From the sequence record NC_018855.1: 64,000 nt of DNA; one strand, 5' to 3'. The notes beneath the pieces are model-generated. The model did not search any database. It was not told the origin of the DNA and saw only the letters and a list, made by a program, of their open reading frames with translations. The translations under genes and the position numbers were made by a program. Positions within the stretch are counted from its first letter, which is position 1. Each line of letters starts with the position of its first letter. Shown here piece after piece: positions 42,526 to 61,769 of the stretch. The stretch is from Escherichia phage HX01.

Positions 42526-42687
42526 AAAATATTTACATTCAAATAACATGGGAACAAGCTGGACCTCATGATTCTATGAGGGATTCCCGCCAACCTGTAA
42601 TAAGGTCGAGTCCAAGTGCGGTAATGGGTAAATACAGAAATGGACAATTCATGTGCCATGGAATGGCCCAAACTTAGAGAGAACAAA

Positions 42688-43227
42688 ATGAAAACATTTT
42701 TAACTGGACCTTATCTATCCCTGATGAATGCTTTTACACACCATTCTGATGCTAGAGTAGAAGAAATTTGTAAGAACGGTTATGTCCCACCATTTGAAGA
42801 CATACTCAAGCAGTACTGTACACTTCGTTTAGACGGTGGCAGACAATCAGGTAAATCCACTGCAGTAACTAATTTTGCTGCTAATTGGCTGCACGACGAT
42901 GGAACAGTTATTGTTCTTTCTAATACTTCAGCTTATGCTAAAATTTCTGCTGGCAACATTAAAAAAGAATTTTCTCGTTATTCTAGCGACGATATTCGAT
43001 TCCGTTTATTTACTGATTCTGTCCGTAGTTTTATTGGCAATGAAGGTTCTAAATTCCGTGGATTAACGCTTTCTCGTATTCTGTATATAATTGACGAGCC
43101 TATTAAAGCTCCTGATATGGATAAGATTTACAACATACATATTAAAACAGTCCAACACTGTTGCAAAAGCAAATATTGCATCAGTGGTATTGCTCGTCCT
43201 CAATTTTTTGTGATTGGAATGCAATGA
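42688..43227 (+). CDS. P-loop NTPase, function unknown
   Basis: 179 aa; Walker A GGRQSGKST and Walker B-like LYIIDE. Confidence 0.6.
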   Translation: MKTFLTGPYLSLMNAFTHHSDARVEEICKNGYVPPFEDILKQYCTLRLDGGRQSGKSTAVTNFAANWLHDDGTVIVLSNTSAYAKISAGNIKKEFSRYSSDDIRFRLFTDSVRSFIGNEGSKFRGLTLSRILYIIDEPIKAPDMDKIYNIHIKTVQHCCKSKYCISGIARPQFFVIGMQ

Positions 43228-43532
43228 TGACCACTATTGAAGTTTTTGAGTATTGTTATAACAGCCCAGTATGCAATAAAAGGGCTCTTGTAGAAAATTA
43301 TGAGATTTACCATTTTAAACCTAAACGATACCGTTTGACTAAAGGTCCGTTCGCAGGGCAGCAGGTTCTTTGTACTGCTCCTAATGCACGGTTGATGACT
43401 AGTATTCCGCATTTCAAAATGGAATTTATTGATGGGCCATTTAAAGGATTAATCACTCAAAGTTTAATGGCGTTTAATTCCGACCCATTTTTGATTAAAG
43501 AAAAAACTTGGATAAATTTATTTTCTAATTGA
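43224..43532 (+). CDS. Hypothetical protein
   Basis: 102 aa, ATGATGA overlap with upstream stop. Confidence 0.5.
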   Translation: MMTTIEVFEYCYNSPVCNKRALVENYEIYHFKPKRYRLTKGPFAGQQVLCTAPNARLMTSIPHFKMEFIDGPFKGLITQSLMAFNSDPFLIKEKTWINLFSN

Positions 43533-43538
43533 GGTTAT

Positions 43539-43901
43539 ATGAAAGCATATCAAATTCTTGAAGGTGTACATAAAGGCACTATTTATTTTGAAGACGGTAC
43601 TCAAGCCCGGATTATCGTCTCTAAGACTTTTAAAGAAGACGCTATTGTAGACCCGGAAATTTTCTACGGTTTGAATGCCCGTGAAATTGAAATTGAACAT
43701 CAACCTAAAGTTAAAATTGAAGGTGGTCAACACCTGAACGTTAACGTTCTGCGTCGTGAAACTCTGGAAGATGCAGTTAAGCATCCGGAAAAATATCCGC
43801 AGCTGACCATCCGTGTATCCGGTTATGCAGTTCGCTTTAACTCTCTGACTCCGGAACAGCAGCGCGACGTTATCGCTCGGACATTTACCGAGAGTCTATA
43901 A
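43539..43901 (+). CDS. Autonomous glycyl-radical cofactor GrcA/YfiD-like
   Basis: C-terminal half ...[49 protein letters not shown] matches E. coli GrcA by recall incl. RVSGY glycine-radical motif; enterobacterial-like codons. Confidence 0.85.
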
Positions 43902-44715: not shown

Positions 44716-45174
44716 ATGACTATCAATTCAGACGTTTTTATCCGCCGTAATAAACTCCGTCGAATCTTTGAAACGGAGTTCCGCAAAATAAATGCCAGTA
44801 TAAAAGATGCTGCAAAGTCTCTTGGACTACCAGGCTTTCATATCAAGTATTCTCAACATCTCTTAGATCGTGCCATCCAGAGAGAAATAGATGAGAACTA
44901 CGTTTTTGAATTATTTCGTAAAGTAAAAAATCATGTTAAAGAAGTTGCAGAATTTTTATCAATGCCGGCACGTCCAGATGTTGATGAAGATTTTGTCGAA
45001 GGTGTTGAATATCGCCCAGGCCGTTTAGAAATAACTGACGGAAATCTTTGGTTAGGACTTACAGTTTGTCGCGAAAATCCTGCATTCAAAATGAAGACTC
45101 TTCAATGCAGAATGGCTATTATTAACAGTAAACGACTACCAGGAAAAGCTTCTAAAGCAGTGATTAAAATCTAG
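44716..45174 (+). CDS. regB: Endoribonuclease RegB
   Basis: MTINSDVFIRRNKLRR...HLLDRAIQREIDE... matches T4 RegB by recall. Confidence 0.9.
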   Translation: MTINSDVFIRRNKLRRIFETEFRKINASIKDAAKSLGLPGFHIKYSQHLLDRAIQREIDENYVFELFRKVKNHVKEVAEFLSMPARPDVDEDFVEGVEYRPGRLEITDGNLWLGLTVCRENPAFKMKTLQCRMAIINSKRLPGKASKAVIKI

Positions 45175-45725: not shown

Positions 45726-46069
45726 CCAAAATGTTGGCTTTAATAGTTGGCTTGGTTTCATTTAACGCTCTTGCTAATACTACATATACTGATGTAACGG
45801 AGTATACAAACAGAACGGCGTCTGATTATTGTGGTAAAAGTCAAGAGTGTAAAGTAGATTTTTCACAAAAATTGTTATATGCGTATAAAGACGGAGAAAA
45901 AGATGGGGCGTCTAGTAGGTTCAAGGCGTCTACCTTAATTAAAAGATACTATAAAAAATGGCAAATATTAGAATGCTCGGTGGCGGAACCTAAAGATAAG
46001 GCAGCATGCAATTCTATGGTGGACCGTCTAGTTGACTCTTATAATAGAGGACTTGCAGCAAGTGATTAA
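45722..46069 (+). CDS. Secreted Cys-containing hypothetical protein
   Basis: 115 aa with N-terminal signal peptide and four Cys. Confidence 0.5.
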   Translation: MTKMLALIVGLVSFNALANTTYTDVTEYTNRTASDYCGKSQECKVDFSQKLLYAYKDGEKDGASSRFKASTLIKRYYKKWQILECSVAEPKDKAACNSMVDRLVDSYNRGLAASD

Positions 46070-46529
46070 AAACTATATCAAGGGCGATATTGTCGCCCTG
46101 TTTTCTAAAGGTAATAATATTGCTCATGGGTGCAATTGTTTTCATACAATGGGCGCCGGTGTAGCAGGTCAATTAGCAAAGGCTTATCCAAAAATTTTAG
46201 AAGCCGATAAACTTCAAACCGAATTCGGAGACGAGTCTAAACTTGGGACTTATTCGGTTTATGAAAAATATTTTAAGACCCATAAAGCTTATTGCTTTAA
46301 TCTTTATACACAGTTTGAGCCGGGACCTAATTTTGAGTACTCTGCTTTAATGAATTGTATAATAGAATTAAATGAATTCGGAAAAAATAAGATAACAAAG
46401 CCTGTAATTTATATGCCAAGAATTGGTGCGGGTATTGGTGGCGGAAACTGGGATGTCATCGAAGAGATTTTAGATACGTATTCCACTAAACTAGAAATTG
46501 TGATTGTTGATTGGGAACCATTATTATGA
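46032..46529 (+). CDS. Macrodomain (ADP-ribose-binding/hydrolase) protein
   Basis: GDIVALFSKGNNIAHGCNCFHTMGAGVAGQLA and PRIGAGIGGG resemble macrodomain signature loops; start ambiguous (TTG 46032 or GTG 46062). Confidence 0.65.
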   Translation: MTLIIEDLQQVIKNYIKGDIVALFSKGNNIAHGCNCFHTMGAGVAGQLAKAYPKILEADKLQTEFGDESKLGTYSVYEKYFKTHKAYCFNLYTQFEPGPNFEYSALMNCIIELNEFGKNKITKPVIYMPRIGAGIGGGNWDVIEEILDTYSTKLEIVIVDWEPLL

Positions 46530-46738
46530 ATATACATTATCCACATCCATATGACCCAAAGAATAAGGCAGTAATTATTCGTCAATGGGAACGCATTTGT
46601 CGTACCAAATGTCCAATTAATAGTCCACATGATGTAGATAAAGACTACATCGGAACATTCGTTGAATATACCTTTATTGATAAGAAAGGCCGTAAACAAC
46701 ATGTAGAAGAATATTGCTTAAAGGTGACATGGTTATGA
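46526..46738 (+). CDS. Hypothetical protein
   Basis: 70 aa, ATGA overlap with macrodomain gene stop. Confidence 0.45.
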   Translation: MNIHYPHPYDPKNKAVIIRQWERICRTKCPINSPHDVDKDYIGTFVEYTFIDKKGRKQHVEEYCLKVTWL

Positions 46739-46920
46739 GTTTAAGTAAAGAACAAAAAGACAGACTCTTTTCTCTTATCCACGAAGTTATGGATAAAAAT
46801 AGCGAATTGGAAAAAGTTTGTAATGAATGCGGTCCTTTTAGCGCAAACGAGTACGAAGAACTTTCTAAAGAATTCGATAATAAAGAACAAGAACTCATTG
46901 ATTATATAAATTCCTTATGA
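46735..46920 (+). CDS. Small helical protein, MxxxEQK paralogue A
   Basis: 61 aa MSLSKEQKDRLFSL... Confidence 0.45.
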   Translation: MSLSKEQKDRLFSLIHEVMDKNSELEKVCNECGPFSANEYEELSKEFDNKEQELIDYINSL

Positions 46921-47114
46921 TTACTCGCGAACAAAAGAACGAAATATTATTTTTAGTTGGTGAAATTATTAGTTTAGAAAAGGATTTGTCTTTTGAATTA
47001 TCTTCTGATTATGGAGATGCCGAAACATATTACGAATTAGTAAAATCTATCGATAAAGCTGAAAATGATTTGGAAACATATTTAGAAAATTTAACTAAGG
47101 ACTCTTATGGCTAG
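46917..47114 (+). CDS. Small helical protein, paralogue B
   Basis: 65 aa MITREQKNEILFLV...; tandem to paralogue A. Confidence 0.45.
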   Translation: MITREQKNEILFLVGEIISLEKDLSFELSSDYGDAETYYELVKSIDKAENDLETYLENLTKDSYG

Positions 47115-47688
47115 TTTAATTTTTACATATGCCGCTATGAACGCTGGTAAGTCTGCTTCATTACTTACTGCCGCACATAACTATAAAGAACGTGGCATGG
47201 GTGTATTAGTTCTTAAACCGGATATTGATACTCGCGATTCAAAAGGTGAAATAGTCTCTCGTATTGGTATTCGTCAGGACGCCAATATAATTACAAAAGA
47301 CATGGATATCTTTGAATTCTATAAATGGGCTGCAGCACAAAAGGATATTCATTGTGTATTTGTTGACGAAGCTCAGTTCTTAACTACTGAAAAGGTGTAT
47401 CAACTTAGTCGTATTGTTGACGTATACAATGTGCCGGTAATGGCATATGGACTACGAACAGATTTTAAAGGTAATCTATTTGAAGGTTCTCAAGCATTAA
47501 TGGCTATTGCCGATAAGCTTGTTGAACTTAAAGGTGTCTGTCATTGCGGTAAAAAAGCCACAATGGTAGCTAGAGTCACGGAAGATGGACTTCCAATTAC
47601 AGATGGCAGTCAAATTGAAATTGGTGATACCGATAGATATGTGTCATTATGCCGGAAGCATTGGAATGATTTGACAGGGTTGTTATAA
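47107..47688 (+). CDS. tk: Thymidine kinase
   Basis: MASLIFTYAAMNAGKSASLL... 193 aa, matches T4 Tk by recall. Confidence 0.92.
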   Translation: MASLIFTYAAMNAGKSASLLTAAHNYKERGMGVLVLKPDIDTRDSKGEIVSRIGIRQDANIITKDMDIFEFYKWAAAQKDIHCVFVDEAQFLTTEKVYQLSRIVDVYNVPVMAYGLRTDFKGNLFEGSQALMAIADKLVELKGVCHCGKKATMVARVTEDGLPITDGSQIEIGDTDRYVSLCRKHWNDLTGLL

Positions 47689-55590: not shown

Positions 55591-56541
55591 ATGACACGTT
55601 CACATTACATTGATTATTTTGCAGGTCTTATCGCTAACGTTCATGCCCAACGTGCTTCTGGTTCATTAGGATTTGATGTTCCACACCGAGTTGTAGTAAG
55701 TGGTATTCTTCGCGATTTTGGTACATACACAGGCCAAGAAAATCATATCTGTAAAGATACTCAGAATGCATATTCTCATTCATTAGGGACACTGCTTCAA
55801 TGGTTCAAACGTTCTCGTTTATTATCTTCTACTGTAGCTCGCGATAACATTAAAAACTTTATGAAGCCGAGCTTTATTAAATCTGTGACATCTAAAACCG
55901 ATTTGGTTGAATTCACTATTGTTAATGATGTTAAAAAGACTCATTTGGCTGATTGGTTATCTACCATTCCTGAAACTAAATTTGCTGATAAATTTGCTTG
56001 TCAGTTCAATGACCAAGTGAATATGCTTTTTAAGCATGCTCGTAAACTATTTACTGCAGGTGATGACCGTACAAATACAGTTCATGTTAAGGATTGGGTT
56101 ATTGCTGATGAAGTAACACATAAGCCAGGTGGTTCATCAGTATTAATTAATATTCAGGTTCCTTATTATTACTCACGTAATCTCGGCACCATGAACTCTA
56201 AAGAAATTAATAAGCACAACAAAACTATTCGTTCGTTGTCTTATAAACTCCGCATGATGTTAAAAATTATGGACGTAGTGGAAATGTATGACGAAACCGA
56301 AGATAATGGTTCAATGTTATACAGTTCACGCATTCTAATTAAACTGAAGAACCCTAATACATATAAGCCAAATGTAAAAGAACCTAAAGTAGAAAAGGTT
56401 GATAACCTGAGCGAAGAACGTGAATATCTCAAATCTCGACTAGTTGAAGTTGAAGTCCAGATTGCCGAACACACCAAATTGTTAAAAGCTCTTAATGCAA
56501 AAGCAAATGGTTTACGTAATGCTATTGAGGTATTGAAATGA
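55591..56541 (+). CDS. Hypothetical 316-aa protein with C-terminal coiled coil (tandem family member 3)
   Basis: Long ORF with own early promoter; C-terminal heptad-rich tail. Confidence 0.6.
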   Translation: MTRSHYIDYFAGLIANVHAQRASGSLGFDVPHRVVVSGILRDFGTYTGQENHICKDTQNAYSHSLGTLLQWFKRSRLLSSTVARDNIKNFMKPSFIKSVTSKTDLVEFTIVNDVKKTHLADWLSTIPETKFADKFACQFNDQVNMLFKHARKLFTAGDDRTNTVHVKDWVIADEVTHKPGGSSVLINIQVPYYYSRNLGTMNSKEINKHNKTIRSLSYKLRMMLKIMDVVEMYDETEDNGSMLYSSRILIKLKNPNTYKPNVKEPKVEKVDNLSEEREYLKSRLVEVEVQIAEHTKLLKALNAKANGLRNAIEVLK

Positions 56542-56855
56542 AAAAGCGTCTATTAGAAGATATTGCAGCTTCAAGTAATTCCAGTCTAATTAAAATTATT
56601 ATGGCTGGTGAAGAAGACGATTTAGAAATGCGCGGAAAGATTCATGGTTGTGACGATTTAGATTTTAAACCTCCGGCTTGGGATGCCATTATGGCTATGG
56701 TTAAACGTCGCGAAAGGGCTTCTAAAAACGTTCCTAATTGTCCTGAATGTGGTACTGAACAGGTTCAATTAGTTCATTGGCAGACTAGTAATCTTCGTTA
56801 TAAATGCCGTCATTGTAAACACCGATTTGACCGAGAAGAAAATGACAAAGCGTAA
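56538..56855 (+). CDS. Zn-ribbon hypothetical protein
   Basis: 105 aa with CPECG...CRHC four-Cys cluster. Confidence 0.5.
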
Positions 56856-57084
56856 AGAATATATGGAGACTGCTGAAAAGGCAGTCCGTGAATTAGCAAT
56901 AGCGTATTATAATGAACACGGTAAATTTCCTGATAGATACAGCGTGCTTAAATCTGCTTTAACTCGTTCATATAAAAATATGCTATCAGAAGTAAGTGAT
57001 ATTATATACAAACATAAAGAACAAACAGGTCAAAGTCTTGATTACGACGAGACTTTTAAACAAGTACTAGGAATTAAGGAATAA
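56842..57084 (+). CDS. Hypothetical protein
   Basis: 80 aa from ATG 56842; start uncertain. Confidence 0.45.
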
Positions 57085-57085
57085 T

Positions 57086-57349
57086 ATGTTTAAAGTATAT
57101 GGTTATGATAGCAGCATCCATAAATGTGTGTATTGCGATAATGCAAAACGTCTTTTGACCGTAAAGAAACAGCCGTTTGAATTTATCAACATTATGCCGA
57201 AAAAAGGTGTTTTTGATGATGAGAAAATTGCTGAGCTTCTGACTAAACTAGGTCGTGATACTCAAATTGGACTGACGATGCCACAAGTATTTGCTCCTGA
57301 TGGAAGTCATATTGGTGGATTTGACCAATTGCGGGAATACTTTAAATGA
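57086..57349 (+). CDS. nrdC: Thioredoxin/glutaredoxin NrdC
   Basis: MFKVYGYDSSIHKCVYCDNAKRLL... 87 aa, matches T4 NrdC by recall. Confidence 0.9.
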   Translation: MFKVYGYDSSIHKCVYCDNAKRLLTVKKQPFEFINIMPKKGVFDDEKIAELLTKLGRDTQIGLTMPQVFAPDGSHIGGFDQLREYFK

Positions 57350-57561
57350 TGCTTGAAGGAACTGATTATATCCATGACTACCGCGGAAGCGCGGTATATG
57401 TAGGTGATGAAGTCGCAGTTTATTATGGGTATGGAACTTTGATGACAGCAAAGGTTATTCAAATTAAAAATAATCATGCTAAACTCGAAGTTTATTATTC
57501 TAACGGTGAAAAGTCTATTTCTAAATGGAAATACGGCGATTGTATGGTCAAACTGGGGTAA
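57346..57561 (+). CDS. Hypothetical protein
   Basis: 71 aa, ATGA overlap with nrdC stop. Confidence 0.45.
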   Translation: MMLEGTDYIHDYRGSAVYVGDEVAVYYGYGTLMTAKVIQIKNNHAKLEVYYSNGEKSISKWKYGDCMVKLG

Positions 57562-57563
57562 AT

Positions 57564-57734
57564 ATGATTTACGATATTAGTGTATCAAGAACTCCGTCAA
57601 TGGTTACTATTCCTGCTGAAGAATTAGATCGTCTTCAGAAAATTGAAGAGCTTCTTTGGGAAATTGAATCTGATTTGCCATCAGGATTAGAATCCTGGAT
57701 TGATTATGAAGAACTTAATAAATTGCGAAATTAA
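57564..57734 (+). CDS. Small acidic hypothetical protein
   Basis: 56 aa from ATG 57564. Confidence 0.4.
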   Translation: MIYDISVSRTPSMVTIPAEELDRLQKIEELLWEIESDLPSGLESWIDYEELNKLRN

Positions 57735-57744
57735 GTGGTGACAA

Positions 57745-58065
57745 ATGACTATTGAAAATAAATTAGATGTTGATGCAGTTCTGAGTGAAATCATCGAAGA
57801 CCATGACGCATTTTCAGAAAATTATGATTTCGATTTTTCGGATTATCTTAAACCTGTCGAAATAGAAGATTGGGTACAAGATGGCAAATGCCAATATCGG
57901 CAGTGCGTTTATTTTAGTCCAAAACATAACGTTCATGTGTCTGTAAATGAATCTCGCTCAGGTTCTTACCATTCTGACTGGTATTATGCAGTTCCGACTG
58001 TTGAACTAGTTGAGCCTCGTGAACGTGTAGTAACTCAGACAATACGAGAATGGATTACGCTATAA
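57745..58065 (+). CDS. Hypothetical protein
   Basis: 106 aa ORF. Confidence 0.5.
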   Translation: MTIENKLDVDAVLSEIIEDHDAFSENYDFDFSDYLKPVEIEDWVQDGKCQYRQCVYFSPKHNVHVSVNESRSGSYHSDWYYAVPTVELVEPRERVVTQTIREWITL

Positions 58066-58188
58066 AACCTTGGTGGGCGGCTAGATGGGAAACAGTAGAG
58101 CCAGAGCCGGAAGAACCGGTTTACACTGATGAAGAAACAGTATATAATGAACCAACGATAAATGACTTAATTGATATGGAGATGGGAT

Positions 58189-58635
58189 ATGATTGCAGTA
58201 GATAAGTGGTTTAGAATTAATCGTGCTGATAAAGGGCTGTGTAATTACTGGCCGGAACTTAGTGCAGGTACTGTCTTTAAAGTTCGTGAACTCGCAAAAG
58301 AATGCGAAGATGATATAGAACCTGATATTGGAATTATTGAAATTGAACTTTCTGATGGAAAGATTATTAACATCTATGATAAGCCAATTACGTATTGGTG
58401 CTTGTGGAATACTGAATCCGCAGAAAATGGCGAGATTGAAGAAGTTGTAGAACGAGTTGATCAAGCTATTCATAAACCTAAAGCTGGATTTCAGGGTGAA
58501 CGTATTTCATATGCATTATCTAAATCGGCGTTGAAAAAAGATATTGATGATTACGAAGGAAATTTGATGCAAGCTGCGGCAGAATATATTGAATGGCTTG
58601 AAACTCAAATTTCTTTTTCTGACCGAGCGTTTTAA
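58189..58635 (+). CDS. Hypothetical protein
   Basis: 148 aa from ATG 58189 (RBS GGAGATGGG); ORF-track start 58171 is TTG. Confidence 0.5.
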   Translation: MIAVDKWFRINRADKGLCNYWPELSAGTVFKVRELAKECEDDIEPDIGIIEIELSDGKIINIYDKPITYWCLWNTESAENGEIEEVVERVDQAIHKPKAGFQGERISYALSKSALKKDIDDYEGNLMQAAAEYIEWLETQISFSDRAF

Positions 58636-58684
58636 TACTTGAAAATAATAAATACCTTTATCTATTCAAGGTAAGGGTTTTATT

Positions 58685-59158
58685 ATGTTATTGACTGGCA
58701 AATTATATAAAGAAGAAAAACAGAAATTTTATAATGCACAAAACGGTAAATGCTTAATTTGCCAACGAGAACTAAATCCTGATGTTCAAGCTAATCACCT
58801 TGACCATGACCATGAATTAAATGGACCAAAAGCAGGAAAGGTGCGTGGATTGCTCTGTAATCTTTGCAATGCTGCGGAAGGTCAAATGAAGCACAAATTT
58901 AATCGTTCTGGCTTAAAGGGACAAGGTGTTGATTATCTTGAATGGTTGGAAAATTTACTTACTTATTTAAAATCCGATTACACCCAAAATAATATTCACC
59001 CTAACTTCGTTGGAGATAAATCAAAGGAATTTTCTCGTTTAGGAAAAGAGGAAATGATGGCTGAGATGCTTCAAAGAGGATTTGAATATAATGAATCTGA
59101 CACTAAAACACAATTAATAGCTTCATTTAAGAAGCAGCTTAGAAAGAGTTTAAAATGA
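58685..59158 (+). CDS. 49: Endonuclease VII (Holliday junction resolvase) gp49
   Basis: MLLTGKLYKEEKQKFYNAQNGKCLICQRELNPDVQANHLDHDHELNGPKAGKVRGLLCNLCNAAEG... essentially T4 endo VII by recall. Confidence 0.92.
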   Translation: MLLTGKLYKEEKQKFYNAQNGKCLICQRELNPDVQANHLDHDHELNGPKAGKVRGLLCNLCNAAEGQMKHKFNRSGLKGQGVDYLEWLENLLTYLKSDYTQNNIHPNFVGDKSKEFSRLGKEEMMAEMLQRGFEYNESDTKTQLIASFKKQLRKSLK

Positions 59159-60972
59159 CAATTGAAAAAGAAATTGAAGGATTGATTCATAAAACTAATA
59201 AAGACCTTTTGAACGAGAATGCTAATAAAGATTCTCGTGTTTTTCCAACTCAACGGGACCTTATGGCTGGTATTGTGTCTAAGCACATTGCCAAAAATAT
59301 GGTCCCGTCTTTTATTATGAAAGCACATGAAAGCGGAATTATCCATTTCCATGATATTGATTATTCCCCTGCTCTTCCATTTACTAATTGCTGTTTAGTA
59401 GATTTAAAAGGAATGCTTGAAAACGGGTTTAAGCTAGGTAATGCTCAAATTGAAACGCCTAAATCGATTGGTGTTGCTACTGCAATTATGGCACAAATTA
59501 CCGCACAGGTTGCTTCACATCAGTACGGCGGAACGACTTTTGCTAATGTAGATAAAGTACTTTCTCCTTATGTTAAACGCACCTATGCAAAACATATTGA
59601 GGATGCAGAAAAATGGCAAATCGCTGATGCGTTGAATTATGCCCAATCTAAAACAGAAAAAGACGTATACGATGCATTTCAAGCTTATGAGTATGAAGTA
59701 AATACTCTTTTTAGCTCAAACGGTCAAACGCCTTTTGTAACAATTACATTTGGTACTGGAACTGACTGGACTGAACGAATTATTCAGAAAGCAATTCTTA
59801 AAAACCGCATTAAAGGCCTTGGTCGTGATGGAATAACTCCTATTTTCCCTAAACTTGTTATGTTCATTGAAGAGGGTGTCAATCTTTATAAAGACGACCC
59901 GAACTATGATATTAAGCAGCTTGCTCTAGAGTGTGCAAGCAAAAGAATGTATCCTGATATTATTTCAGTTAAGAACAATAAAGCTATCACTGGTTCATCT
60001 ATTCCTGTTTCTCCAATGGGTTGTCGTAGTTTCTTGAGTGTATGGAAAGATTCGACTGGAAATGAAATTCTTGATGGACGTAATAATCTTGGTGTTGTAA
60101 CACTGAATCTTCCTCGTATTGCGTTAGATTCTTATATTGGAACACAATTCAATGAACAGAAATTTGTTGAGCTATTTAATGAACGAATGGATCTGTGTTT
60201 TGAAGCCTTGATGTGTAGAATTAGTTCTTTAAAGGGTGTTAAAGCAACTGTTGCTCCTATTCTTTACCAAGAAGGTGCATTCGGGGTTCGTCTTAAACCT
60301 GATGACGATATAATTGAGTTATTTAAAAACGGTAGAAGTTCAGTGTCCCTAGGATACATTGGTATTCACGAATTGAATATTCTTGTCGGACGTGATATTG
60401 GACAGGAAATTTTGACTAAAATGAATGCTCGTCTTAAGCAGTGGACTGAAAGAACCGGTTTTGCTTTTAGCTTGTATTCTACTCCTGCTGAAAACCTGTG
60501 CTATCGCTTCTGTAAACTTGATACAGAAAAATATGGAAGTGTAAAGGATGTTACTGATAAAGGCTGGTACACTAACAGTTTCCATGTTTCAGTAGAAGAA
60601 AATATCACTCCGTTTGAAAAGATTTCTCGCGAAGCCCCATATCATTTCATTGCGACAGGTGGTCACATTTCTTATGTTGAACTTCCTGATATGAAAAATA
60701 ACCTAAAAGGTCTTGAGGCTGTATGGGATTATGCTGCACAGCATTTAGATTATTTTGGTGTTAATATGCCAGTAGATAAATGTTTTACATGTGGAAGTAC
60801 CCATGAAATGACTCCTACTGAAAACGGATTTGTTTGTTCTATTTGTGGAGAAACTGATCCTAAAAAGATGAACACCATAAGAAGAACATGCGGTTATCTT
60901 GGAAATCCGAACGAACGCGGATTTAATCTCGGCAAAAATAAAGAAATCATGCATAGGGTTAAACACCAATGA
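59155..60972 (+). CDS. nrdD: Anaerobic ribonucleotide reductase NrdD, uninterrupted
   Basis: 605 aa, C-terminal glycyl-radical motif RTCGYLG and Cys cluster; no intron. Confidence 0.92.
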   Translation: MTIEKEIEGLIHKTNKDLLNENANKDSRVFPTQRDLMAGIVSKHIAKNMVPSFIMKAHESGIIHFHDIDYSPALPFTNCCLVDLKGMLENGFKLGNAQIETPKSIGVATAIMAQITAQVASHQYGGTTFANVDKVLSPYVKRTYAKHIEDAEKWQIADALNYAQSKTEKDVYDAFQAYEYEVNTLFSSNGQTPFVTITFGTGTDWTERIIQKAILKNRIKGLGRDGITPIFPKLVMFIEEGVNLYKDDPNYDIKQLALECASKRMYPDIISVKNNKAITGSSIPVSPMGCRSFLSVWKDSTGNEILDGRNNLGVVTLNLPRIALDSYIGTQFNEQKFVELFNERMDLCFEALMCRISSLKGVKATVAPILYQEGAFGVRLKPDDDIIELFKNGRSSVSLGYIGIHELNILVGRDIGQEILTKMNARLKQWTERTGFAFSLYSTPAENLCYRFCKLDTEKYGSVKDVTDKGWYTNSFHVSVEENITPFEKISREAPYHFIATGGHISYVELPDMKNNLKGLEAVWDYAAQHLDYFGVNMPVDKCFTCGSTHEMTPTENGFVCSICGETDPKKMNTIRRTCGYLGNPNERGFNLGKNKEIMHRVKHQ

Positions 60973-61439
60973 ATTATGATAGATTTTATCCTTGCGATTT
61001 TGTGAATGGCCCTGGTTGCAGGGTCGTTCTTTTCGTTACAGGTTGTTTGCATAAATGCGAAGGGTGTTATAATAAATCAACATGGAACGCTAGAAATGGT
61101 ATTCCATTCACGGGTGAAACACTGGAACAATTAATTGAATGTTTGAATAATGATTATATAGAAGGATTAACTATAACTGGAGGAGACCCTCTCTATCCTG
61201 ATAACCGAGATGTTGTTCATTGCATTGTTCAAACAGTAAAAAATCTTTATCAAAATAAAAGCATTTGGTTGTGGACAGGATATAAGTTTGAAGATATTAA
61301 ACAACTAGAAATGCTTAAATATGTTGATGTTATTATTGATGGGAAGTATGAGAAAAATCTTCCGACCAAAAAACTGTGGCGAGGATCAGATAATCAGCGA
61401 CTTTGGTCAAATACCGATGGGGTGTGGAAACATGATTAA
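60969..61439 (+). CDS. nrdG: Anaerobic RNR activase NrdG (radical SAM)
   Basis: 156 aa, CxxxCxxC-type cluster (GCLHKCEGCYN); ATGA overlap with nrdD. Confidence 0.9.
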   Translation: MNYDRFYPCDFVNGPGCRVVLFVTGCLHKCEGCYNKSTWNARNGIPFTGETLEQLIECLNNDYIEGLTITGGDPLYPDNRDVVHCIVQTVKNLYQNKSIWLWTGYKFEDIKQLEMLKYVDVIIDGKYEKNLPTKKLWRGSDNQRLWSNTDGVWKHD

Positions 61440-61553
61440 ATTGAATTATATTATGGATACTATAAATGATATGATTTTTCATTTTGGTCCAGAATTTTAT
61501 TCGCAGTATAGTTTGGTGTTTATCAATGTTTGGTTAATCAATTAAGGGTAAAT

Positions 61554-61769
61554 ATGTATAAATTTCGTAAAGGTTTAGCTGATTTTCTTACAACTGTAAC
61601 GTTCTTTTTGTTTATGGCAGTTGGAGCTATTTTTCTTATTCCTTTTACTGTTGTATTTTTCTTGATTAGTTTAATTTCTCCGGAAAAGGGATTATCCTCC
61701 AGCGAATTCAATGAACGTTTGGACAAAATTACTAATAAACTGAATTCTGTTCTTGATAAAAAGGCTTAA
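61554..61769 (+). CDS. Small membrane protein
   Basis: 71 aa from ATG 61554, one long hydrophobic helix. Confidence 0.45.
   Translation: MYKFRKGLADFLTTVTFFLFMAVGAIFLIPFTVVFFLISLISPEKGLSSSEFNERLDKITNKLNSVLDKKA

Follow-up and report, generated by a model that had tools for sequence, protein, structure and literature searches.

A tract identical to Escherichia coli grcA within vs.6 of Escherichia phage HX01 and its probable origin by gene conversion

How does a small gene of a T4-like phage come to match the chromosome of its host base for base over one protein domain, and only loosely over the rest? The question is raised by a gene in a stretch of 64,000 nucleotides of Escherichia phage HX01 (NC_018855.1), referred to here as the window. 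The gene, vs.6, occupies 43539..43901 on the plus strand, as given by the ORF list and the sequence. It is a small stand-alone ORF of 120 aa with its own Shine–Dalgarno sequence and stop codon, in keeping with the GrcA class of proteins (~14 kDa, about 120–130 aa). The Shine–Dalgarno sequence GAGG (43531..43534, plus strand) lies 4 nt upstream of the ATG and overlaps the stop codon of vs.7, and vs.5, which follows, begins with an ATG that shares sequence with the TAA stop of vs.6. A scan for promoters and terminators around vs.6 gave signals at the level of shuffled sequence.

The gene is the ortholog of T4 vs.6, which encodes Y06I, and its product is an autonomous glycyl radical cofactor of the GrcA/YfiD type. 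The HX01 protein matches Pfam Gly_radical (PF01228) with an E value of 1.9e-18, the structure of E. coli GrcA (PDB 6owr) with 2e-42 and phrog_1209 with 1.5e-62. The top NCBIfam model by a wide margin is the GrcA equivalog TIGR04365, which covers residues 18–120 with 159.1 bits (E=6e-47); the score stays below the curated equivalog cutoff of 170 because the N-terminus is divergent. Orthologs with 97–98.6% identity in Mosigvirus genomes carry the annotation 'autonomous glycyl radical cofactor'.

A preliminary description of this locus had recognized the C-terminal ~60 residues, with the RVSGY motif, as those of E. coli GrcA/YfiD. Comparison of the C-terminal half with enterobacterial grcA bears this out at both levels: residues 61–120 agree with E. 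coli GrcA in all 60 positions, RVSGY included, and the DNA is identical over 163 of 163 nt. The same 60 residues share 48 positions (80%) with PflB 700–759. Translation and alignment to GrcA and PflB place the RVSGY motif at 43812..43826 and the codon of the radical glycine, G95, at 43821..43823, both on the plus strand; the equivalent residues are GrcA G102 and PflB G734. This glycine is not replaced in the alignment, as the motif is kept in all of the ~90 phage orthologs and bacterial grcA/pflB loci with a translated C-terminus that were compared.

The window belongs to a T4-like coliphage of the Mosigvirus type, with 97–98% identity over 1.4 kb to phages NHEP11, PNJ-9 and AlbertHofmann. Comparison with the annotations of T4 and JS98 places vs.6 between vs.7 and vs.5 in the T4-type gene order vs.8–vs.7–vs.6–vs.5…regB. 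A vs.8-like ORF is found at 42640-43227, regB at 44716-45174, a macro-domain gene at 46032-46529 and tk at 47107-47688, and gene 49 is also among the neighbors. The genes for NrdD and its activase NrdG, which the preliminary description had reported in the same window, lie at 59155-60972 and 60969-61439, respectively.

Several segments of the window are unusually close to T4. The region 42550-42750, comprising intergenic DNA and the start of the vs.8-like ORF, is 95–99% identical to T4, with adjoining sequence at about 75–80%, and the end of the macro-domain gene with the DNA just downstream (46450-46750) is 91–97% identical. The longest segment, 55683-61754, extends from upstream of gene 49 through nrdD and nrdG and is 93.4% identical to T4, whereas the rest of the window is at about 72–78%; this block suggests a recent phage–phage exchange between genera. 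In Dhakavirus JS98 (NC_010105, 57097-57604), vs.4, a vs.5-like ORF, vs.7 and vs.8 are present with no vs.6 between them, so the spare-part gene is dispensable or lost in this genus of E. coli-infecting T-even phages. In phage JQD51 (PV204681.1), the name 'glycyl radical protein' sits on a small ORF at the vs.5 position and the true vs.6 is called hypothetical, which looks like an off-by-one annotation slip.

The two halves of vs.6 differ in composition. The N-terminal half (codons 1–59 and the first base of codon 60; 43539..43716, plus strand) has a GC content of 0.354 and a GC3 of 0.25, typical for the phage (coding mean 0.380, s.d. 0.038), whereas GC rises to 0.503 in codons 61–113 at 43717-43879 (Fisher p=0.006). 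Against a baseline of 12,353 windows of 53 codons from 50 phage ORFs of the 64-kb window, this GC content is reached in 0.024% of cases, and the GC3 of 0.43 (mean 0.28) falls in the top 2.5%. All five leucine codons in the tract are CTG, which accounts for 7% of leucine codons phage-wide, and all three proline codons are CCG, used in 15% of cases by the phage. The compositional shift that had been noticed from the letters is thus quantitatively real. It had been placed at about 43720 to 43901, and of these limits the start holds, as the host-identical run begins at 43717. The end does not: the run stops at 43879, 22 nt earlier, because the last seven codons differ from E. coli at six synonymous positions.

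In the codon alignment, positions 43717..43879 on the plus strand form an exact run of 163 nt with E. coli grcA nt 200–362 (GrcA residues 68–120), identical at every synonymous site over 53 codons. The 5' edge of the identity is sharp, at 43716/43717. Upstream, identity to grcA drops to about 50–60%, and downstream there are 6 differences in 22 nt. These 22 nt are the 3' tail of the gene (codons 114–120 and the stop codon; 43880..43901, plus strand), where the amino acids equal those of GrcA and the 6 differences from E. coli are synonymous; its codons GAG AGT CTA are also found in phage lineages that lack the host-like tract. The tract covers nearly all of the structured domain that docks into pyruvate formate-lyase (PFL), with the disordered residues 1–60 of GrcA lying outside.

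The tract is the sole match of the 64-kb window to E. coli genomes at the megablast level. The query containing it gave 10,838 places, the same number as the 163-nt tract alone, and no other host-like stretch was found in the window by this search. This explains the short match resembling host contamination that phage assemblies give at this locus. Among 5,426 complete E. coli genomes, roughly 40–45% match the tract at 100%, and nearly all others have 1–2 mismatches. The nearest species other than E. coli are cryptic Escherichia, at about 98.7–98.8%, followed by species at 91–92%. E. coli and K. pneumoniae differ at 21 sites of the tract, and HX01 has the E. coli base at every one of them. We also considered pflB, whose C-terminal glycyl radical domain in PflB/TdcE resembles vs.6 in fold and motif. 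Its DNA is 80% identical to the tract, as compared with 100% for grcA; pflB is therefore ruled out as the donor in favor of grcA.

Could the match have arisen with no transfer of DNA at all? In hundreds of sequences from phages and bacteria the last 60 residues hardly vary, and grcA is a highly expressed host gene, so that purifying selection together with selection for efficient codons might have made phage and host sequences converge. Nature supplies controls for this idea. The same 53 amino acids occur in 14 bacterial species and 4 phages, where the tract DNA is 84–92% identical (about 98.7% in cryptic Escherichia); over this stretch K. pneumoniae grcA is only 87% identical to that of E. 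coli, and the figure is only 84% for phages GAP161 and L013-15, whose amino acids are the same. The longest exact runs in the sampled non-Escherichia species and in phages without a converted tract are about 45 nt. Moreover, 53 codons match at every synonymous site and then 6 differences follow in the last 7 codons. We rejected convergence on the strength of the identical-protein controls and regard it as extremely improbable. The comparisons support the view that the C-terminal part of vs.6 is, as judged from its sequence, host-derived DNA.

The N-terminal half shows a different relationship. Although the first 20 residues are unrelated to GrcA, residues 22–60 alone align with GrcA 28–67 (BLASTP, 35% identity over 40 residues, E=3e-6). 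At the DNA level, this half follows phage relatedness, with 88% identity to the T4 clade and about 71–74% to Jiaodavirus; its assignment as phage-type rests on this and on BLASTP against GrcA 1–67. The preliminary description had proposed a host gene fragment fused to a phage-specific N-terminus. Its host-derived C-terminal DNA is upheld by the 163 identical nucleotides, whereas the phage-specific N-terminus gives way to the homology of residues 22–60 with GrcA.

The gene has its full length, and mostly phage-like C-terminal codons, in Slopekvirus, Karamvirus, Pseudotevenvirus, Krischvirus and T5-like phages, and the C-terminal half in the non-converted lineages has a GC3 of 0.22–0.30. A comparison of 80 IMG/VR loci with 80 bacterial grcA loci revealed no host-identical tract in Slopekvirus, Karamvirus, Pseudotevenvirus, T5-like or uncultivated Pasteurellaceae-type phages, with a background identity of 70–85%. 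One locus, L030, is 91% identical to a Yersinia grcA and also 87% identical upstream; it resembles a bacterial grcA from a short contig and was left out of account. Since unpatched relatives have a full-length, AT-rich homologue, the patch in vs.6 is best read as gene conversion of a pre-existing phage gene.

Within Slopekvirus, the Klebsiella phages L018, L019 and L173 on the one hand and L013-L015 on the other split between the residues LLDAVEH (Klebsiella-type) and LEDAVKH (E. coli-type). Both types occur without host-like codons, at 80–85% DNA identity, and may represent eroded older conversions or selection for host-matching residues.

An older, single capture of the whole host gene would also produce two unequal halves, if the disordered N-terminal half had drifted fast and the C-terminal half had been frozen. 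The N-terminal half is indeed recognizable as a GrcA homologue, and its disorder in GrcA would allow it to evolve quickly. Freezing of the protein, however, cannot hold synonymous sites, and the non-converted lineages have phage-like C-terminal codons. This explanation also has to face the age and the host specificity of the tract described below, and we consider it very unlikely.

Of the phage databases, some 1,500 records match vs.6. The tract is present at 95% identity or more in 641 phage records, which comprise Tequatrovirus, with T4 and T2, and Mosigvirus; 394 of them reach at least 99%, and the T4 and T2 records 100%. Host-identical DNA in the genome of a lytic phage is a classic signature of contamination, and an assembly chimera or host reads might be suspected here. 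Yet the tract lies in frame inside a conserved gene, and the same junctions recur in these 641 independent records, including T4, T2 and the RB phages, so that we assign an artifact negligible probability. Two records stand out by their labels: the 142-kb 'Pseudomonas phage' PV654520.1 has the E. coli tract at 100%, and in the 288-kb Klebsiella phage record PP355766.1 vs.6 lies beside tRNA genes and not beside vs.5. Both have the look of T4-like assemblies that were concatenated or wrongly labelled.

HX01 vs.6 and T4 Y06I correspond closely. Both genes lie between vs.7 and vs.5 and contain the same E. coli-identical tract; the HX01 protein has 120 aa and 94% aa identity to that of T4, with all 7 substitutions in the N-terminal half. 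They differ in that HX01 has a Mosigvirus-type N-terminal half (88% DNA identity) and an exact host identity that is 12 nt shorter. Between HX01 and T4, the flanking genes are about 75–78% identical, the N-terminal half of vs.6 88% and the tract 99–100%. Against a T4-clade locus (L004), HX01 has no differences in the 163 nt of the tract, as compared with 21 in the 178 nt of the N-terminal half (p=7e-7); for third positions the counts are 0 of 53 and 14 of 59 (p=7e-5). The tract is therefore younger than the split between Tequatrovirus and Mosigvirus, which speaks against the old whole-gene capture.

In both genera, the junctions fall at gene positions 178/179 and 353/354, and at vs.6 positions 354 and 357 the two genera have bases in common that are not those of E. 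coli. E. coli identity runs to gene position 353 in most relatives, whereas in HX01 three synonymous changes at 43880, 43883 and 43889 (G, A and C) end it at 341 (43879), 12 nt earlier. The changes are private to HX01 among the close relatives examined and lie within 10 nt at the 3' edge of the tract; they may stem from a small patch of recombination, or conversion may have ended at another point in this phage. Substitutions within the tract, of which HX01 has none, are mostly private to single phages. They coincide with E. coli alleles only at site 219 (T/C), in a single phage (L006), which does not suffice to infer separate E. coli donors.

The matching observation comes from Klebsiella phages of the genus Jiaodavirus, where vs.6 is found at the same place as in the coliphages. 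In JD18, KP185, AM_K4 and a fourth locus, L027, the tract is 96–98% identical to K. pneumoniae grcA and 88% to E. coli grcA, with a GC3 of 0.62–0.66. L027 has the most K. pneumoniae-like tract, containing an exact run of 140 nt. At the 21 tract sites that separate the two hosts, the coliphages have 19–21 E. coli bases, whereas the four Klebsiella phages have 17–19 K. pneumoniae bases within the same gene architecture, a further difficulty for a single whole-gene capture; this comparison rests on one K. pneumoniae grcA allele. The Jiaodavirus junctions, at 180/181 and 338/339, are nearly those of the coliphages. Two host-specific amino acid differences travel with the tract, which reads LEDAVKH in the E. 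coli version and LLDAVEH in the Klebsiella version. By these alignments, the sequence of the structured domain goes with the host and that of the N-terminal half with the phage lineage.

E. coli-like bases at edge positions 180 and 339 of the Klebsiella tract might hint at a nested conversion, an idea with two sites only to its credit. In L027 (IMGVR_UViG_2974754850_000001), the N-terminal half of vs.6 has a 1-nt deletion relative to JD18 about 80 nt upstream of position 1680, which is either a frameshift, making the gene a pseudogene, or a sequencing error. Two PLSDB 'plasmids', CP125156.1 (a 5.37-Mb K. pneumoniae replicon) and LR134122.1 (a 568-kb K. aerogenes piece), are mislabelled chromosomal sequences and were the source of Klebsiella grcA.

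We consider it highly probable that HX01 vs.6 is the ortholog of T4 vs.6, a spare part for PFL, and that the structured-domain DNA of an AT-rich phage homologue was overwritten by E. coli grcA. A full-length AT-rich phage gene would have existed first, and we infer that the overwriting occurred by homologous recombination (gene conversion). Strong conservation of the protein would hold the DNA of the phage gene at about 80% identity to that of the host gene, making strand invasion possible, and after conversion perfectly matched DNA would extend over more than 160 nt. Exchange would stop at the point where the homology runs out, and the common 5' junction at the domain boundary could have this cause. 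A separate event of the same kind, with K. pneumoniae grcA as the donor, would account for the Klebsiella-infecting relatives. T-even phages break up the DNA of the host and use recombination to replicate (Mosig et al., 2001). Two points weigh against this reading: because these phages degrade host DNA, conversions from host to phage should be rare, and laboratory T4 still has the allele that is not that of K-12 at the single common polymorphism of E. coli within the tract.

How often has such overwriting happened? One variant of gene conversion invokes a single host-to-phage event in one coliphage, followed by phage–phage spread in Tequatrovirus and Mosigvirus. It would account for the identical junctions 178/179 and 353/354 and the shared non-E. 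coli bases in both genera, and it agrees with the star-like pattern of mostly private substitutions and with the mosaic nature of T-even genomes, exemplified by the nrdD region (93% to T4 versus about 75% elsewhere). Common junctions, on the other hand, are also expected if tracts stop where homology ends, and the separate K. pneumoniae-derived tract of Jiaodavirus needs at least a second host-to-phage event, so that at least two such events are required overall. We see the single coliphage conversion as a serious candidate that falls just short of an even chance. For the wider proposal, that the docking domain of vs.6 is repeatedly overwritten by grcA of the current host (that of E. coli for Tequatrovirus and Mosigvirus, that of K. 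pneumoniae for Jiaodavirus), we consider the case evenly balanced.

The function of vs.6 is addressed by published work on T4. Y06I is activated by the PFL-activating enzyme (PFL-AE) and restores oxygen-cleaved PFL, according to Wagner et al. (2001) as cited in PMC8683613; the function of vs.6 is therefore already known. YfiD and Y06I are the only spare-part proteins that have been validated (PMC8683613). In GrcA, residues 61–127 form a structured PFL-like domain with the fold of PflB 693–759, and residues 1–60 are disordered, yet needed for binding cleaved PFL (PMC8683613). HX01 vs.6 is, like E. coli GrcA (YfiD, PDB 6OWR), a small stand-alone protein that has the same C-terminal 60 residues and a weakly homologous N-terminal half, and by analogy it is expected to dock to cleaved PflB and to be activated by PflA. 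Unlike GrcA, it is 7 residues shorter, is only about 35% identical over 40 residues of the N-terminal half and is expressed from the phage genome during infection. Since its docking domain equals that of E. coli GrcA residue for residue, the same PFL-rescue activity is expected. By orthology to T4 Y06I, HX01 vs.6 is thus inferred to be a GrcA-type spare part for host PFL.

In such a role, oxygen would cleave host PflB at its radical glycine, the phage C-terminal domain would dock in place of the lost PflB C-terminus, and the host activase PflA would install the radical on G95 of the vs.6 protein. PFL activity would return in a cell that is no longer able to express its own genes.

The preliminary description had suggested a spare glycyl-radical domain acting after oxygen damage, with NrdD and NrdG of the same window in mind. 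The spare-part role stands for PFL through the T4 ortholog (PMC8683613, as far as the work is cited there) and finds no support for NrdD. The presence of both NrdD and NrdG in the window might point to a spare part for the ribonucleotide reductase of the phage itself. NrdD is cleaved by oxygen at its radical glycine. In T4 NrdD the glycyl radical is at Gly580, as stated in the title of a reference, and a role for vs.6 in nucleotide metabolism was speculated in an older genome paper (PMC1524935). However, BLASTP of vs.6 against the NrdD of HX01 gave no significant alignment (best E=2.6), leaving no detectable pairwise similarity, and the docking domain is that of GrcA, 80% identical to the PflB C-terminus. 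The rescue work as cited in PMC8683613 covers PFL and PFL-AE only. We therefore regard a direct role as a spare domain for NrdD as very unlikely.

An indirect connection between PFL and NrdD is plausible on general biochemical grounds, as the formate that PFL produces serves class III ribonucleotide reductase as its reductant. Rescued PFL would keep acetyl-CoA, ATP and formate flowing, and the formate might feed the phage NrdD/NrdG, encoded 15 kb downstream.

The gene vs.6 and its function were known before, and the original observation at this locus adds no new biology. Our literature search for DNA-level exchange of grcA between phage and host, or for host-specific tracts, found no report; an earlier mention is possible in Wagner 2001, Miller 2003 (PMC150520) or Bowman 2019 (PMC6754787). 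The closest parallel is psbA of cyanophages, for which intragenic recombination between host and phage has reportedly been described (Zeidner et al. 2005; Sullivan et al. 2006). Both cases involve a host-derived metabolic gene in T4-like phages that has swapped segments with the host and is mosaic with compositional shifts. In contrast to psbA, the host in the vs.6 case is enteric and has its DNA destroyed by the T-even phages, the exchanged segment corresponds to a single structural domain, and host-specific tracts occur in two phage–host pairs.

The locus may be worth following up on two grounds: within a functional gene, a strictly lytic T-even phage has 163 nt of host chromosome without a single change, and in the sister phages of Klebsiella a Klebsiella version is bounded by almost identical junctions. 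If the docking domain is indeed repeatedly overwritten, vs.6 would be a self-reinforcing gene-conversion trap, in which conservation keeps the homology and each conversion raises it, and a clear case of ongoing flow of DNA from the chromosome to lytic phages that destroy host DNA. The tract could then act as a molecular record of the hosts that a phage lineage has recently used. Should the phenomenon prove general, it would offer a natural and easily scored system to measure recombination between the host chromosome and T-even phages, it could test the need of spare-part proteins to match host PFL and activase, and recent host use would be readable from phage genomes.
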